A stretch of 64,000 bases of DNA from a virus (lineage: Duplodnaviria; Caudoviricetes): the IMG/VR virus record IMGVR_UViG_3300047319_000334, positions 326-64,325 of that record; one strand, written 5' to 3'. Positions 4,648 through 63,830 of the stretch are shown one piece after another. Every line of letters starts with the position of its first letter. Within the stretch, counting starts at the first letter, position 1. The notes below the pieces were generated by a model. It worked only from the letters and a program-made list of their open reading frames with translations. It did no database searches and was not told where the DNA came from. The translations under genes and the position numbers were made by a program.

Positions 4648-4902
4648 TTACTTGGCGTGATTGCGATAGCATTCGTCCCACGCTTGCTTGTATATGCTGC
4701 CTGGGCGCTTCTCACATTCGTCATAGCAGGCATCAACCATCCAGTGCCAGTCGGCTCGCGGATTGTTGTTGCACCGGGCTGAGTGGTAGATCATCTGGTA
4801 GGCCTCGGACGACAACTTCTCGTCATCCATCGCCGCGATCTTGGCGAGGTATTCCGACTTTGGGCGCCCGTAGTGATCGTTCCCGGAGTATTTCGAATCC
4901 AT
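4648..4902 (-). CDS. Phage hypothetical protein
   Basis: AGGAG RBS and ATG. Confidence 0.65.
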   Translation of the reverse strand: MDSKYSGNDHYGRPKSEYLAKIAAMDDEKLSSEAYQMIYHSARCNNNPRADWHWMVDACYDECEKRPGSIYKQAWDECYRNHAK

Positions 4903-4929
4903 TTCAGTCTCCTGCGTAGTGGAGCGAGG

Positions 4930-58380: not shown

Positions 58381-58878
58381 TCATATCGTCCTCGATTGCT
58401 TCATGAATACGAGCCAATGCGTCATTCCGCTGCGGCCACTGACCTGGCCGAACAGAGGGCTCGCGGGCGTGAGCGCAAGCACTTCGTCGAGCTTGACCTG
58501 TGTCTCATTCCATTTGAAAACGAGAACGCCGTGGTCTTCCAGAACCCGGAAGCACTCGGCAAAGCCTTTGCGGATGTCCTCGCGCCAGTCGGTGCCAAGC
58601 TTTCCGTACTTCGCTGCAAGCCAGCTACGCGGGCCCGCGCGCACGAGATGCGGCGGATCGAACGACACGAGCTTGAAAGACCCATCCGGGTACGGCAGCG
58701 CGCGGAAGTCCATCAACACGTCGGGCTCGATGAGCAGCGTCCGCGTTCCGTCTTCGCGGTGCGATCGGTCAGTCACGGTGATCGTCTCGTGACGCTGATC
58801 GCCAAATACAACGTTCGGGTGCTGCCGGTCAAACCAGAACATTCGACTGCCGCAGCACGGGTCCAAAATCAACTTCAT
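58381..58878 (-). CDS. SAM-dependent methyltransferase (probable DNA amino-MTase)
   Basis: ILDPCCGSRMFW motif I and FDPPH motif IV. Confidence 0.88.
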   Translation of the reverse strand: MKLILDPCCGSRMFWFDRQHPNVVFGDQRHETITVTDRSHREDGTRTLLIEPDVLMDFRALPYPDGSFKLVSFDPPHLVRAGPRSWLAAKYGKLGTDWREDIRKGFAECFRVLEDHGVLVFKWNETQVKLDEVLALTPASPLFGQVSGRSGMTHWLVFMKQSRTI

Positions 58879-59336
58879 ATCGTCCTCACTTGTTCGATTG
58901 CTTCGCCAAACAGGTCGCCAACAGCAAGCCGGGAGCGCCGCGTCTGGCGCGCTGTCTCGGCATGGTGCTCAGCGTCATAGGCAAGGTGGCAGCGCTGACA
59001 TAGCGCCTTCAGGTTGTCGTCGTCGCAGTGCTCGGGAACGTGATCCAGATGGGCTATCGTCAGCACGACACGCGTCCACTTATTGCCGCAGTATTCCGAA
59101 GCCTTGCAGCGGCCAAGCAACCGCCCATCGTCGGCTGCATAAACCTCGCCGTCGCCTTCGAAACGCTGGAACGTGCCCGCGTCTTTGTCGATGCCGCGAA
59201 CGATCGTGTCGCCGTTCGCGACACGGCATTGCTCGCAGCAGTCACCAGCCCGCTTGAGAATCCGGGCGCGAATCGCTTTCCAGTTCGACGGGTAGCGGGC
59301 CTTGTTTTCCGGTTTGATTGGCATGGGGGGCATCAC
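58875..59336 (-). CDS. HNH-like nuclease
   Basis: CEQC..LTIAHLDH..NLKALCQRCH. Confidence 0.8.
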   Translation of the reverse strand: MMPPMPIKPENKARYPSNWKAIRARILKRAGDCCEQCRVANGDTIVRGIDKDAGTFQRFEGDGEVYAADDGRLLGRCKASEYCGNKWTRVVLTIAHLDHVPEHCDDDNLKALCQRCHLAYDAEHHAETARQTRRSRLAVGDLFGEAIEQVRTI

Positions 59337-59373
59337 TCATTGTTCGATTGCTTCGCGCGCTGCGCGGATGGGG

Positions 59374-60132
59374 TTAGGCGGATACTCGCTTGAACTCGAC
59401 GACCCAGACCCACGGGTCGGCGTCCCATGATTCGGCGCCGTTGATCGATTCCCACAGGCAGCGAAACGAGCTGCGCGGCGAATACGTGCCATCCACGCCG
59501 CTGCGGCCGTATGTGCTCCAGAAGCCGGCAGGCGTCTTGCCGATGCCTTCCGCAATGGCGTCTTGCTCGCTGATGTCCTGCAACCGCTCGACGCGCACGC
59601 CAGTGACTTCGAGCGTGATGCGCGACGCCCAGCGCGGCATGTGGATTGAGGGGCATGCCTTGGCGCCATAGCTCAACAGCGCGGATGAGCGGGGGCAGCC
59701 GGCGACGTTGTAGCTGGCACCGGGTGCGCGCGTTTCCTCGACCCAGTAATCTCCGATCGTCGGCGTGGTCGAGACGTCGTGGCGAAACAGGCCCGGTTTT
59801 TCCAGCACGCCGCGAAGCTTGCTGATTACGCCGCTCTCGCGCACCCACAGGCGGTCGCCGGGTTGCCCATGCGGGCATTCGAAGCCATAGCCGTCTTTCA
59901 TGATGTGACGACCGTCGTATTCGCCAGGCTGCTCGAATTGCAGGTATGCACGATCACCGCGGCTGGACATGTGCTTGTCGCGTGCCGGCCAGTAGACCTT
60001 CGGAAGATAGCCGTCTTGAATTACAGCGGGCGGCTGACGTTTCATGACGCGGCGCGTCTGCGTCTTGCTGCCGTCGAGCAGAGCGCGCACCATCGGGCCG
60101 CTGAAGAGGATCGGACGTTCTTTGATGGTCAT
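59374..60132 (-). CDS. ASCH-like phage protein
   Basis: ERPILF..KTQTRR, GDRLWVRE, PSIHMPRWASRI, PWVWVVEF. Confidence 0.8.
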   Translation of the reverse strand: MTIKERPILFSGPMVRALLDGSKTQTRRVMKRQPPAVIQDGYLPKVYWPARDKHMSSRGDRAYLQFEQPGEYDGRHIMKDGYGFECPHGQPGDRLWVRESGVISKLRGVLEKPGLFRHDVSTTPTIGDYWVEETRAPGASYNVAGCPRSSALLSYGAKACPSIHMPRWASRITLEVTGVRVERLQDISEQDAIAEGIGKTPAGFWSTYGRSGVDGTYSPRSSFRCLWESINGAESWDADPWVWVVEFKRVSA

Positions 60133-60280
60133 TTGCTGCCCCGATATGTTTTGGTCAAAGCCTGGTTGACGGCGTGGCCGCGGCGTCGCACTGCGTTCGC
60201 TAGCGTCGCGCGGTCGTGGTGGCTGCTTGGCGCTTGACCCAGCAGGCCGAAATAGCTGTTCGAGACAGGCCGAAAATCTC
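60129..60280 (-). pseudogene. C-terminal remnant of a DGR reverse transcriptase
   Basis: SNSYFGLLGQAPSSHHDR..LA resembles the thumb-end SYxGxL motif of DGR RTs; lies where the RT should end, coupled to the next gene. Confidence 0.65.
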
Positions 60281-61151
60281 GGATTACGCGACGTGCTTCC
60301 AGATTTCCCGCTTCACGATGCGCTGAACTGTCTTGACCGACACGCTCAGTTCCCGTGCCAGAGCGCTCAGGCCATGGTCTGGGTCGCGGGGCACGTGACG
60401 CCGACGAATCTCCGCAACCTGCGCCTCGGTGAGTTTGTTGCTGTGGTGCTTTGTCCCAACCACCTTGGTTCCATGCTCGGCCTTGTCGGCTTCGTTCTCC
60501 AGCGGCGTTCCATAAGCCAGATTGCCCAAACTCGGATCGCTGTTCTTGCCGTCCAGATGCCGAATCACAAGACCGCGAGGACGTGGACCGAGAAAGGCCG
60601 CAGCGACCAACTTGTGCACAGCGACTTTCTTGGCCCTCCCATCCACCCAGAAACTCACGCGCGGATAGCCGTCGCCATCCGGCGTGGCCTTTCTGATCCG
60701 CGCGCCGCGCCTCACTCGCCCCAAACTGCTGACCTCGTATCCGACGAACCCCACTACCGGCAACCATTCTTCTGATTCCATGTGCATCTCCTTGACCTCC
60801 ACGAAGCGGGCGATGTGCGGCGTTCTTCCACCCGTTGGCCTGCTTCCCGATGCTGGTCGTCTGCTCGACGGACCCGGCGTACGCCTTACGCGAGATAAGG
60901 CGCTTGTCCATACCAAGGCGCAAGAGCAGTTCGATCACCTGAAGGCGTTCGAGCAACTCGGTCAGGTGCGACGCCTTGTCGACTGCCACGTTCGCGCGAA
61001 ACACCAGAACCATGATCTCGATGCATTCCGTGCTGATCTTCTCGCCGATGGAGCGTTTGAAGTCGCGCGGCATGTTCTTGACCATGTCGGTGACGCTATC
61101 GAGCAGCGCATAGGCCGCTCGATAAATCGGAAGTTGGGTGTGCAGGGCCAC
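60129..61151 (-). CDS. avd: Avd (DGR accessory four-helix bundle, first ~120 aa); stop lost, reads through to the RT remnant
   Basis: LPIYRAAY.L..MPRDFK..G..I..AN..LLLRL..D..LIS..Y..IGKQANGW. Confidence 0.85.
   Translation of the reverse strand: MALHTQLPIYRAAYALLDSVTDMVKNMPRDFKRSIGEKISTECIEIMVLVFRANVAVDKASHLTELLERLQVIELLLRLGMDKRLISRKAYAGSVEQTTSIGKQANGWKNAAHRPLRGGQGDAHGIRRMVAGSGVRRIRGQQFGASEARRADQKGHAGWRRLSAREFLGGWEGQESRCAQVGRCGLSRSTSSRSCDSASGRQEQRSEFGQSGLWNAAGERSRQGRAWNQGGWDKAPQQQTHRGAGCGDSSASRAPRPRPWPERSGTGTERVGQDSSAHREAGNLEARRVIRDFRPVSNSYFGLLGQAPSSHHDRATLANAVRRRGHAVNQALTKTYRGSK
60284..60787 (-). CDS. NUMOD4-HNH homing endonuclease with C-terminal HTH
   Basis: EEWLPVVGF..YEVSSLGRVR (NUMOD4), VHKLVAAAF, RHLDG..NLAYGT..EN; AAGGAG RBS. 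Confidence 0.92.
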   Translation of the reverse strand: MHMESEEWLPVVGFVGYEVSSLGRVRRGARIRKATPDGDGYPRVSFWVDGRAKKVAVHKLVAAAFLGPRPRGLVIRHLDGKNSDPSLGNLAYGTPLENEADKAEHGTKVVGTKHHSNKLTEAQVAEIRRRHVPRDPDHGLSALARELSVSVKTVQRIVKREIWKHVA

Positions 61152-61165
61152 GATGGTTTAAATGA

Positions 61166-61630
61166 TCAAATTACTGAAGGGATAAATCTGCGGACGGCGC
61201 GGGCGCGGAACTCGTAGCTCTGGTGGTCGTAGTGCTGACTGCCGTCGTCGAAGTACTGACACCAGGCCCAGCCGGACTCCGATTCATGCGCCTCGGTCGA
61301 CCAGTACGCACGCTCTTCGAACTCGCCCTTCAGGTTCGCGAAGAGCAACGATTGCTCGCGACGGGTCGGGAGTTCGCCGCCTTGCTCGACTGCCCATTCC
61401 TTGGCCGCCGACCACGAGACATCGTCCACGTCGCCGGGCAGCAGGATCAGGTGATGCGACAGCACGCCGTCCTCGCCGAGCACGACACCTGCGTAGCGCT
61501 CACCCGGCGCGAGCGGAATCGTTGCCGCCGGAATGCGGAGTTCCGTTGCACGCGGCTGCTTCTTGAACTCCGCGATCAGTTCACTGATGCGGGACTGTTC
61601 GGCCTCGATGGCTTCAAGCGTGATGGTCAT
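61166..61630 (-). CDS. DGR target 2: DUF1566/CLec-fold protein with N-terminal coiled coil
   Basis: LPTRREQSLL, YWS, AW..F..G.Q..RARAVRR. Confidence 0.88.
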   Translation of the reverse strand: MTITLEAIEAEQSRISELIAEFKKQPRATELRIPAATIPLAPGERYAGVVLGEDGVLSHHLILLPGDVDDVSWSAAKEWAVEQGGELPTRREQSLLFANLKGEFEERAYWSTEAHESESGWAWCQYFDDGSQHYDHQSYEFRARAVRRFIPSVI

Positions 61631-61933
61631 TGCGATGCTCCGTTGTAAATGGGCAAAGGGTTAAATGGACAATCTGCGGACGGCGCGGGCGCGGAACTCG
61701 CTGGTCTGGCGGTAGCAGTACTGACCGCCGCGGTCGAAGTCCTGATACCAGGCCCAGCCGGACTCCGATTCATGCGCCTCGGTCGACCAGTACGCACGCT
61801 CTTCGAACTCGCCCTTCAGGTTCGCGAAGAGCAACGATTGCTCGCGACGGGTCGGGAGTTCGCCGCCTTGCTCGACTGCCCATTCCTTGGCCGCCGACCA
61901 CGAGACATCGTCCACGTCGCCGGGCAGCAGGAT
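61185..61933 (-). repeat. 263-bp direct repeat (61185-61447 and 61671-61933) containing two variable regions
   Basis: Identical except 12 mismatches within 61215-61260 / 61701-61746. Confidence 0.95.
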
Positions 61934-62020
61934 GGTGTGCGTGACATCACCGGTTGCGTTTACGAAGCCGCCGAGATAGATTTCGCCTTCTGCGAGCGGG
62001 GGAAGCTGAACTTGTTGCAT
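61661..62020 (-). CDS. DGR target 1: DUF1566/CLec-fold protein
   Basis: Same domain as target 2; AGGA RBS. Confidence 0.88.
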   Translation of the reverse strand: MQQVQLPPLAEGEIYLGGFVNATGDVTHTILLPGDVDDVSWSAAKEWAVEQGGELPTRREQSLLFANLKGEFEERAYWSTEAHESESGWAWYQDFDRGGQYCYRQTSEFRARAVRRLSI

Positions 62021-62166
62021 GAGTTTTCCTGTGAAAAAGAGCCGCGCATACTGGCCGGCTAAGCGCACGCTTGCGGAGACCACCGCAAGGTTTAGGGGCG
62101 CGCCAACAGACTTACTCAGAGATTCACGCCGGAGGCTTCATCTGATGCTGGTGGACGCGTGAGGGT

Positions 62167-62934
62167 TTAGGCGGCCTCCTGACGAAGCACCTTTTCGTAC
62201 TGAGCGACCAGCATGGCGAATTCCCAGAGATCCTTTTCGAGCGCTTCGATGTAGTCCTCATCGCGCTTGAATTCCTGATACCAGAACTGCTTTCCGGCGG
62301 GCTCCAGCGCCGGGCAGTACAGGCAGTTATGCCACCACTTCCGGCCAGAGATCCACATGCCGCCCATGGACTGATCATGGACGTCAGTGAAATCGCCGTC
62401 GATGTAGATTGAGCGGAGGCGATCGGGAGCAACGAAACACTTGTACTCGCTGCCGCCGTCGTCATTGATCAATCCGTCAACACTGACGCCAAAGAGCCCA
62501 TCGTCCGTTTTCATGAACCCGCAGCGCTGCACGAACAAGCCTGTGCGAGCTTCGTGCTCCATGCGCGCGGACGGCTCCAGATCATGTCCGCGGCGCATCT
62601 GCCAAGTCTCGAACCCCTCGTCAAGCGGCTCTCCACTAATGCGCTCGACCGCAAGCCGGAAAGCGTAGTCCTTGGCTTTATCCGAGTAGTCGCCGACCTT
62701 CTCGCCGTTGAGGGCCCGGGTGATGATGTCGGACTTCGGCAGGGCCTTGTATCCGGCTGCCTCAGCAGCGGCCTTCTCGGGCGTGCCGGCCAGACGTAAA
62801 TTGACGAACTGCTGCTGACGGTCATCCAGGCATCCGACCTTGCTGCGAGCGGTCGCAAACATACTGGCAGTAATTACGCCCGCGCGCGCCCGATGCCATT
62901 CCGGTGAACCCTGTTCGCATTCGACAATAATCAT
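62167..62934 (-). CDS. YqaJ/lambda-type exonuclease
   Basis: QGSPEWHRARAGVITAS, GHDLEP, SVDGL, EYKC. Confidence 0.92.
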   Translation of the reverse strand: MIIVECEQGSPEWHRARAGVITASMFATARSKVGCLDDRQQQFVNLRLAGTPEKAAAEAAGYKALPKSDIITRALNGEKVGDYSDKAKDYAFRLAVERISGEPLDEGFETWQMRRGHDLEPSARMEHEARTGLFVQRCGFMKTDDGLFGVSVDGLINDDGGSEYKCFVAPDRLRSIYIDGDFTDVHDQSMGGMWISGRKWWHNCLYCPALEPAGKQFWYQEFKRDEDYIEALEKDLWEFAMLVAQYEKVLRQEAA

Positions 62935-63830
62935 TGCGGGCCTCCTTCGGCGGCAAGCTGACGTTGAAACTCCGCTTCCATTTCGGAGTCGTCTGCGCCA
63001 GGTTCACGTTGCGGCTCGGGCGCCTTCGCTGGGAGCGTTTTGCTCTTTGCAGCCATCGCCGCCTTGAACGCATCCGATGCAGGCGCATCCTTCGCTGCGT
63101 TTATTTCCTTGACAGCGCGCTTCCAGAGCGTGTCGAACTGATCTCTCATTGTTACTGCGTTGGCCTCGGCAACGAGCTTGATACCCAGTGCGCTCAATAC
63201 TGGCTCGCCCGGCTCATCGTCGTGCCGATACTCTTCCGGCAAGTCTTCGATGTCCTGGGTGAAAATGTCCGACGCTGCGGTGACGTTGAGCGTCATGGCG
63301 ATCTTGGCGCGCTTGCAGGCCATCTTGAGGATGGTGTTCGCCTGGTCGGCCGACTCGGTGCGAATCTGCTGCTTCTTCTCGACCTTGTTATTCCATTTAG
63401 CGAACTTCAGCCGGCGCAGGTTTTCCGGCGTGACCTCGAACTCTTCGGCGCAGATTGCACCGCGCCATTTGTATTTTTCCTCGTGGGATGAGCACTCGCC
63501 CATCCCCTCGCCCAGAACGACGCCAGTCACCTGATGGATGCCGATGCAACGCACGCGGAAGCGCGCCATGCCGTCGACAGTCAGGTCTTCGATCTCGTAC
63601 TTGTCGGCGACGCGGAACGTCACACACAATACTTCCGCGCCCGGCTTGTACAGCGACGGCTTCTTGGTGCCGGGAATCACGCCGTAGTGCGTCTCGCTCT
63701 TCATGATGGAGCGCATCACTTCCTGCACGAGATTCACCCGCTGGCGAATCTCCATCGCTGAAAACTGATGCACCTCACCTGCAACGATGCCGGCGCTCTC
63801 GCGCCGCGGCATTTCGATTACTTCGTTCAT
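62931..63830 (-). CDS. Putative single-strand annealing/recombination protein
   Basis: HYGVIPGTKKPSLYKPGAE, NTILKMACKRA; coupled to the exonuclease gene. Confidence 0.65.
   Translation of the reverse strand: MNEVIEMPRRESAGIVAGEVHQFSAMEIRQRVNLVQEVMRSIMKSETHYGVIPGTKKPSLYKPGAEVLCVTFRVADKYEIEDLTVDGMARFRVRCIGIHQVTGVVLGEGMGECSSHEEKYKWRGAICAEEFEVTPENLRRLKFAKWNNKVEKKQQIRTESADQANTILKMACKRAKIAMTLNVTAASDIFTQDIEDLPEEYRHDDEPGEPVLSALGIKLVAEANAVTMRDQFDTLWKRAVKEINAAKDAPASDAFKAAMAAKSKTLPAKAPEPQREPGADDSEMEAEFQRQLAAEGGPQ

Follow-up and report, generated by a model that had tools for sequence, protein, structure and literature searches.

How does a phage come to carry the target genes and the avd gene of a diversity-generating retroelement (DGR) in a genome without a template repeat (TR) and with only the end of a reverse transcriptase (RT) gene? 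The question is raised by the IMG/VR virus record IMGVR_UViG_3300047319_000334 (Duplodnaviria; Caudoviricetes), which comprises 64,325 bases and is rated 100% complete by CheckV. Bases 326-64325 of this record, a stretch of 64,000 nucleotides (nt), were analysed and are referred to as the window; all positions are window positions unless a locus is named. This temperate soil phage belongs to the Burkholderia/Pseudomonas type. Its minus strand carries the genes target1, target2 and avd, which are followed by a gene encoding an HNH endonuclease with a NUMOD4 domain and by the last ~48 codons of a DGR RT; this order, given in a preliminary description made from the sequence alone, agrees with the list of open reading frames (ORFs) and with the Pfam matches. 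To our knowledge, DGRs are the only natural machines for targeted hypermutation known in bacteria and phages, and we know of few studies on their loss or switch-off. We propose that the DGR engine of this temperate phage was replaced by a cassette carrying the endonuclease gene and that the resulting allele has spread by the action of the endonuclease, a reading to which, taken as a whole, we assign a probability of roughly two in three.

Absence of the template repeat and the reverse transcriptase

Using Pfam, no RVT_1 match was obtained across the whole 64,325-base record. A BLAST search of the record with 165 bases of the target2 3′ end, which include its variable repeat (VR2), returned only this repeat and the one in target1 (VR1) and no third copy. 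The absence of TR and RT noted in the preliminary description is thus confirmed for the entire virus record. Of the DGR-clade RT gene that a functional DGR requires, only the RT remnant at 60129-60280 is left (the last ~48 codons and the stop, in the frame of avd; the peptide ends ...SNSYFGLLGQAPSSHHDR...TKTYRGSK), and the TR homologous to the VR, also required, is lacking. The locus is therefore a former member of the DGR family found in Burkholderia phage Magia that now fails two defining features, RT and TR. Because neither is present in the genome, VR1 and VR2 are expected to be frozen as the DGR last wrote them, in line with the frozen-DGR allele postulated before.

The native part of avd (60790-61151, minus strand) encodes a bAvd domain (PF22296, E 5.4e-13, residues 14-110), but its last three codons and stop are replaced. 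The frame stays open past the junction for ~220 further codons up to the first stop at 60129, which results in a read-through ORF of 340 codons (60129-61151, minus strand) composed of avd, an out-of-frame reading of the HNH gene and the RT tail. Avd is likely crippled by the 220-codon extension in this allele. The 340-codon frame itself is probably an accidental by-product of the junction, since alternative-frame ORFs of 150-180 amino acids (aa) are common in this region of ~60% GC and avd keeps its own stop in two other HNH alleles (L083 and L192, described below).

Intact relatives and the junctions of the cassette

A blastn search of phage genomes led to Burkholderia phage Magia, in which a lectin-fold target, a second target, Avd and an RT are annotated in this order. 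The same order was found in phage vB_E192a. The window aligns with the Magia targets and avd from 62008 to 60790 and, from 60254 to 60139, with the final 116 nt of the RT gene of Magia (70.7% DNA identity), and the Magia TR matches both VRs of the window. When IMG/VR loci were anchored on avd, this gene was followed by a TR and a full-length RT at fixed spacing in 70 of 75 loci, and the HNH gene was present in none of these 70. The remaining five are L004, which carries the same HNH gene as the window, L077 with a different HNH gene, and L074, L075 and L038. In the closest intact loci (L003, L005, and L031), avd is 96% identical to that of the window, and the final 48-49 residues of their RTs show 88-90% identity to the window RT tail (tblastn); the tail was also placed in an alignment of about 70 RT C-termini.

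The preliminary description had assumed that a ~0.5-kb endonuclease cassette replaced the avd stop, the TR and most of the RT, and had suggested looking for TR and RT between the same flanks in relatives, for similarity of the tail to RT C-termini and for the same junctions in other genomes. TR and full RT fill the interval in the 70 loci, in Magia and in vB_E192a, the tail aligns with the RT ends of L003, L005, and L031 as given above, and the junctions recur in two further contigs, L004 from IMG/VR and one of 2,252 bases from sequencing run X2. The alignment with intact alleles bears out the assumed replacement.

The junctions were mapped to the base by a five-way DNA alignment of the window, the HNH allele L004 and the intact alleles L003, L005, and L031. 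The inserted cassette covers 60269-60789 on the minus strand (510-521 nt). Its left junction is located at 60790|60789, four codons ahead of the avd stop. Intact alleles read ...GGAGGTCAAGG followed by CCxCCATGACTGA at this site, and avd ends with GQGHHD and the stop; the window and L004 read ...GGAGGTCAAGG followed by AGATGCACATGGAA, the start of the HNH gene, and avd reads ...GQG, with the loss of three codons and the stop. The right junction lies at 60268-60280, approximately six codons before the conserved NSYFGLL motif of the RT. Here, a few bases follow the HNH stop (60286-60284) before certain RT homology starts from 60268 downward, and positions 60272-60278 match the intact alleles at six of seven bases, either as microhomology or as part of the junction. 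Altogether, ~0.52 kb take the place of ~1.2 kb comprising the last avd codons with the stop, a spacer, the TR and approximately 88% of the RT gene, counted from its start; the window lacks a conserved element after avd and the RT up to about residue 378. We regard the structural replacement of the TR and RT segment by the endonuclease cassette as established with very little room for doubt.

The most conserved DNA of 66 intact alleles consists of the TR, a 24-nt element just after avd and the RT motifs, all of which belong to the replaced segment. Part of the TR is the most conserved DNA of the interval between avd and RT (conservation 0.966), followed by the 24-nt stretch with 0.948 (6386-6409 in L031). 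This stretch, which is missing from the HNH allele, may be a functional element of the DGR RNA.

The endonuclease and its relatives

The NUMOD4-HNH_3 gene (60284-60787, minus strand) lies in a frame other than that of avd and encodes 167 aa from the ATG at 60787 or 165 aa from the ATG at 60781. The protein matches NUMOD4 (2.8e-8), HNH_3 (4.4e-8) and, weakly, HTH_38 in Pfam, PHROG 59 (HNH endonuclease, 2.5e-38) and, with residues 5-110, the PDB entry 1u3e ("HNH homing endonuclease", I-HmuI; E 4e-9). It displays the features of I-HmuI-like enzymes, namely an HNH_3 core with H...N...N, NUMOD4 and a weak C-terminal match to a helix-turn-helix. In an alignment of 22 sequences, H77 and N98 are present throughout, and N89 is kept in 90% or more of them; these positions align with I-HmuI residues, and we take H77, N89, and N98 to be the candidate catalytic residues. 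The gene is preceded by a ribosome-binding stretch (GGAGG..AAGGAG), most of which is avd 3′ sequence: the part up to 60790 is also found in intact alleles and the last two bases belong to the cassette. Presence and absence of the gene is polymorphic at one site, with HNH alleles in the window, L004 and runs X2 and X3, and intact alleles in L003, L005, L031, and X3. We infer that the protein is a homing endonuclease of the free-standing type.

When viral, genome and metagenome contigs were searched together with 401 genomes of a single order, 148 loci with a usable HNH homologue were obtained. Nine of them directly follow a DGR target, with or without avd. The HNH proteins of the window and L004 are 100% identical, and lower identities were found for L083 (a Burkholderiaceae metagenome-assembled genome, 60%), L192 (an isolate genome of Pseudomonas caricapapayae, 59%), L193 (a Paraburkholderia metagenome-assembled genome, 51%), L194 (the complete chromosome of Pseudomonas gorinensis, 48%), the viral contigs L111 and L112 (46-49%) and L109 (37%), in which the gene follows three targets. 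The seven HNH ORFs other than those of the window and L004 all match HNH_3, and six of them match NUMOD4 (Pfam). An RT C-terminal remnant follows the HNH gene in seven of the nine loci, avd is kept in four and lost in five, and the target genes remain intact ORFs in all nine. The left junctions vary among loci, being located inside the avd end, 65 or 255 nt after the avd stop, or directly after the target. In a tree of 160 rows, the nine HNH proteins with DGR context form one clade with 20 database proteins (Shimodaira–Hasegawa-like approximate likelihood ratio test, SH-aLRT, 98), which contains none of the 131 rows from other contexts. Judging from this tree, the endonuclease lineage appears to be specialised on this DGR family. 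No clade-A HNH protein above 41% identity was detected in 400 further genomes of the order of genome G001 beyond G001 itself, where L109 (37%) was among the matches, and the scan of one metagenome returned a single short contig (L084, 44% identity), on which no DGR parts were detected.

A mere hint at the context of the 20 database proteins comes from P0007, whose N-terminal extension looks like the 3′ end of avd when the latter is read in the frame of the HNH gene. In L083, a strong match to C4 antisense RNA is located between avd and the HNH gene (4842-4927; RF01695, 74.6 bits against a gathering score of 45), with weak isrK and RT-15 matches beside it (4740-4821 and 4669-4739); in Rfam searches, the window has no such C4 element.

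The HNH gene of L077 belongs to another family. At 2303-2938 of this locus, a 148-aa HNH ORF (PHROG 3377, HNH endonuclease, E 4.8e-39) has taken the place of the 3′ part of avd, the TR and the 5′ part of the RT, and it lies between avd codons 1-27 and an RT remnant starting at HHDR. The protein has no similarity to the window HNH (BLASTP E 2.4). Its two closest relatives, with 71% identity, are encoded in L274 and L275 (2464-3438), where one follows a whole avd and the other an avd cut to ~30 codons, and no RT was detected within 3 kb of either. The remaining 78 homologues among the matches listed (≤53% identity) are not found in this context; in L280, targets are found 1.2 kb upstream. The sequences thus indicate that unrelated HNH families independently made the same replacement in this DGR family.

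Three further loci are altered in other ways. In L074 (2378-3312) and L075, avd is cut to about 50-65 codons and followed by a 246-aa ORF without a Pfam or PHROG match, and no RT is present; they represent another kind of DGR decay in the same family. The RT match of L038 (6426-7723) is split over two frames (residues 1-277 and 282-424), which suggests either a frameshift or an error of sequencing; apart from this, the DGR is intact.

Exchange of the cassette between genomes

The window and L004 share a block of 866 nt without a single difference (60219-61084, minus strand). It runs from the 3′ part of avd across the cassette into the RT tail and reaches 295 nt beyond the cassette on the left and about 50-57 nt on the right. 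Outside this block, the identity falls to 66% on the left and to less than 50% on the right, and the target2 proteins of the two loci are only 58% identical. Inside the block, 31 informative sites agree with L004 and none with L031, whereas outside it 80 of 83 agree with L031, two with L004 and one with neither; the stretch 60133-60218 is mixed between the two types. Taken together, these sites identify the block as a laterally exchanged patch in a diverged background. Flanks of the kind left by co-conversion are thus seen together with the endonuclease gene, a pattern that general recombination can also produce.

HNH and intact alleles were also found in sequencing runs. In run X2, the 2,252-base contig mentioned above has a depth of 85, bridges both junctions and enters L004-type flanks at its loose ends. 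In run X3, one contig bridges the HNH gene and the RT tail without mismatch (60241-60390), and another crosses the left mosaic breakpoint at 61085, likewise without mismatch. The same run contains an intact allele, of which the avd 3′ end is identical at 88 of 88 positions (60877-60790) and is followed by 154 other letters and then by a copy of the TR; a further contig matches the tail at 174 of 175 bases (60094-60268) and continues into RT sequence. A contig of run X4 covers 60282-60783 exactly. HNH and intact alleles whose flanks are nearly identical are therefore found together in at least one sample (X3, which like X4 derives from the rhizosphere).

Proposed mechanism of spread

Of the two parts of our reading, the spread of the HNH allele by its endonuclease is the less certain one, and we hold it to be somewhat better than an even chance from the sequence comparisons. 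In the proposed course of events, a phage carrying the HNH allele would meet an RT-bearing relative in one cell, and the endonuclease would cut or nick a site inside the TR-RT segment of the rival. Since the HNH allele is devoid of this 1.2-kb segment, a target anywhere within it would leave the carrier immune. The break would then be repaired from the HNH allele, with avd (or the 3′ end of the target) and the RT 3′ end as arms, and the recipient would lose TR and RT and gain the endonuclease gene with co-converted flanks. These steps are modelled on established free-standing phage endonucleases. According to the passages of PMC2988022 devoted to them, the free-standing endonucleases of T4 are promoter-less cassettes and can cut hundreds of bases away from their own gene, and their cutting results in co-conversion of the flanks and exclusion of the rival phage's markers. 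With regard to the suggestion in the preliminary description that the allele spreads by cutting RT-containing relatives, such spread is supported indirectly by the identical patch, the coexisting alleles and the clade association.

A more far-reaching version would regard the two unrelated HNH lineages as dedicated DGR parasites, which recognise DNA specific to the TR-RT module, overwrite the engine during co-infection and act as a gene drive that freezes the linked VRs. We put this forward tentatively and with more doubt than confidence. The DNA recognised would perhaps be the TR or the conserved element just after avd. If this version were true, phage populations would lose DGRs through drive instead of neutrally, and hitch-hiking would lead to sweeps of frozen target alleles.

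Several points weigh against spread by the endonuclease. The right junction was considered as a conserved recognition site and rejected, as the conservation of the NSY region among the 66 intact alleles is ordinary (0.74-0.75) and outside the top 12 windows. Judged by where the tblastn alignments start, the RT remnant begins at different points among loci, from 6 codons ahead of the NSY motif to 12 codons behind it, which fits independent events or later erosion, and no RT tail was detectable in L111 and L109. The 20 database proteins of the clade lack context information, and L109 is placed on a long branch, so that its position is unsure. A second block similar to L004 lies away from the cassette, at about 62000-62150 upstream of target1 (see below). 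RecT and a YqaJ-type exonuclease are encoded and the phages are mosaic, so general recombination could have moved the patch and is a live alternative as its mover. Run X1 may be the source sample of the window and X2 that of L004, so the runs are not necessarily independent. Finally, a chimeric assembly of the window contig itself would count against the reading, although for the HNH allele it is unlikely.

The alternative that best withstands the data is passive decay: illegitimate recombination brought in the endonuclease gene, and the allele spread by descent and RecT-mediated mosaicism with the enzyme uninvolved, maybe inactive or in another role. It draws on the recombination genes 1-2 kb upstream, the near-identical L004 block off the cassette, the right junctions that differ among loci and the decayed alleles without a recognisable endonuclease (L074 and L075, together with the split RT of L038). 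However, chance poorly explains why all nine HNH genes in DGR context, and none of 131 outsiders, fall into one clade, and the same replacement by a second, unrelated HNH family in three loci is left unexplained. The HNH ORFs are full length, with catalytic residues conserved over identities from 37% to 100%, which points to selection on the enzyme. Moreover, the RT tails, which have no known function, are still readable in seven of the nine loci, which fits repeated recent transfer better than long descent. We therefore consider passive decay unlikely, yet still a serious competitor to spread by the endonuclease.

The block at about 62000-62150 is 94-100% identical to L004 between flanks of 60-76% identity and represents a second recently exchanged patch, unrelated to the cassette.

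Variable repeats, recency of the loss and supply in trans

The target1 ORF (61661-62083, minus strand) opens with a GTG at 62083; its likely start is the ATG at 62020, and the product has 120-140 aa with a putative C-type-lectin-like C-terminus (Lcl_C; Pfam E 7.4e-5, under the gathering score). In Magia, the annotation of its homologue names a lectin fold domain and a potential role as DGR target. According to the ORF list, target2 (61166-61630, minus strand) encodes a paralogue of 154 aa (Lcl_C, E 2.7e-5, also under the gathering score). FGE-sulfatase matches are likewise below the Pfam cut-offs, and the PHROG matches of the targets are of unknown function. The two genes have a 263-nt direct repeat of 95% identity in common, in which, as read from the sequence, the differences cluster in the final ~60 nt. 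VR1 is located at the 3′ end of target1 (61672-61762, minus strand) and matches the TRs of L031, L005, and L003; VR2 is located at the 3′ end of target2 (61186-61276, minus strand).

Compared with the TR of L031, all 12 differences of VR1 (88 columns) and all nine differences of VR2 are at TR adenines, and no difference was found at the 63 non-adenine positions of the TR. This restriction to adenines holds against the closest intact relatives, L031 and L005; against the more distant TR of Magia, 14 of 19 differences (VR1) and 11 of 16 (VR2) are at adenines. The adenine-only pattern is the signature of DGR mutagenesis. Since the VRs differ from the TR of relatives at adenines only, the engine must have been lost recently, and the lost TR was identical to that of L031 and L005 at every non-adenine position.

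The same clean pattern could be expected if the DGR were still active and a TR and RT supplied in trans, by a DGR of the host or of a co-resident prophage, continued to diversify the VRs. Remote targets of DGRs are known, and avd is retained in four of the nine HNH loci. Such borrowing of TR and RT, also raised in the preliminary description, finds no support in the genomes searched. In addition to the lack of RVT_1 and of a TR copy in the complete virus record, no full RT of this kind was returned when five bacterial genomes that carry such loci, including one complete chromosome, were searched with a DGR RT. Apart from the tail remnants, this search yielded a single 569-aa ORF, which is unrelated (39% identity across 99 residues). 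RVT_1 is absent from G001. The window avd, without its stop and with 220 extra codons, and the loss of avd from five of the nine loci also argue against supply in trans, which we consider improbable.

Assembly and splicing

The window is a contig derived from a metagenome, and at least one run contains alleles of both types, which raises the question of whether two strains were joined in one contig and the cassette was never located between avd and the RT tail. The contigs of run X1, the probable source run, do not cover 60128-61185; this gap proves nothing. Identical junctions are present in L004, an IMG/VR contig of another data set, and the HNH allele was found in X2, X3 and X4 as described above, so the junction is not an artefact of one assembly. 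The same architecture also exists in the isolate genomes of P. caricapapayae and P. gorinensis, the latter a complete chromosome. An assembly artefact is accordingly very improbable.

A self-splicing intron or intein that restores an intact product could be imagined from the common frame of avd and the RT tail and from I-HmuI, the closest solved relative, being encoded by an intron, but this can be set aside almost entirely, as no Rfam match at E values up to 1, group I and group II introns included, and hence no ribozyme structure around the endonuclease ORF was obtained in 59900-62200, and without the cassette, avd would simply be joined to the final 48 codons of the RT, with the TR and the catalytic RT absent from the DNA.

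Comparison with known systems

I-HmuI of Bacillus phage SPO1 is encoded in a group I intron of the DNA polymerase gene and nicks one strand. The window protein resembles it in the N-terminal NUMOD4-like strands and the HNH core (PDB 1u3e), but is free-standing, with no intron detected.

The order in the DGR of Bordetella phage BPP-1 is mtd-avd-TR-brt. The intact relatives of the window locus have the corresponding order of target, avd, TR and RT, and VR and TR differ at adenines only, as in BPP-1. In contrast to the tail-fibre receptor-binding protein diversified there, the targets are two small proteins of 120-154 aa encoded in the early region. The intact DGRs of Magia, vB_E192a, L003, L005, and L031 have two putative lectin-fold targets with VRs in common with the window, as well as an avd that is 86-96% identical, the RT C-terminus and a position next to recombination genes in the early operon; in the window, the TR, the conserved element that follows avd and the RT up to about residue 378 are missing.

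Parallels for the mobility of the cassette are the free-standing endonucleases that T-even phages encode (SegF, SegG, and MobE), for which intronless homing is described in sections of PMC2988022. As in those passages, the gene is a promoter-less cassette within an operon, is present or absent among close relatives, is accompanied by an identical flank patch as expected from co-conversion, and its allele is devoid of sequence that the rival allele has. In contrast to the intergenic insertions of T-even phages, ~1.2 kb of retroelement template and RT are displaced here and mutagenesis is abolished. In addition, the phages are temperate and of the Burkholderia/Pseudomonas type, and cleavage and biased inheritance are proposed.

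In the literature search, which covered titles and abstracts outside subscription journals and supplementary files, no publication on an endonuclease gene inside a DGR or in place of one was found, and no match was obtained for Burkholderia phage Magia. In the sections of PMC12386605 on these elements, homing endonucleases and a DGR are located in separate parts of one genome, and the HNH passage of PMC8867640 concerns retrons. The mobile endonuclease is of a known kind; new are its niche and its effect, the switching off of a hypermutation system.

The loss of the DGR takes the form of a clean, recent and recurrent replacement by two HNH families within one DGR family instead of slow decay, and it gives a concrete and testable example of two kinds of elements, selfish or semi-selfish, in conflict with each other. 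Pairs of alleles with and without the engine, with near-identical flanks and from the same samples, are suited to measuring the worth of hypermutation to a phage. The candidate endonucleases may recognise sites within conserved DNA of the DGR and could serve as DGR-specific tools.

Neighbouring genes and a second endonuclease gene

Upstream of the targets, a gene for a YqaJ-type exonuclease was identified with Pfam (62167-62934, minus strand). It is preceded by a possible RecT-like gene (62931-63830, minus strand), assigned by its position as in Magia and without a supporting Pfam match. Neither promoter-like sites nor terminator-like sites on the minus strand were found in 59900-62300. The gene downstream of the RT remnant (59374-60132, minus strand) encodes 252 aa and matches PHROG 874 (unknown function, 6.9e-73); its ATG overlaps the RT stop (ATGA) in the window and likewise in the intact loci L005 and L031.

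A second HNH gene encoding 153 aa with a weak Pfam HNH match is located 1 kb downstream (58875-59336). It is flanked by a perfect 17-nt direct repeat (58890-58906 and 59340-59356). In L004 and L005, the gene is missing and the two flanks adjoin each other at a single copy of the repeat, which makes the second HNH gene another presence/absence polymorphism of an endonuclease.

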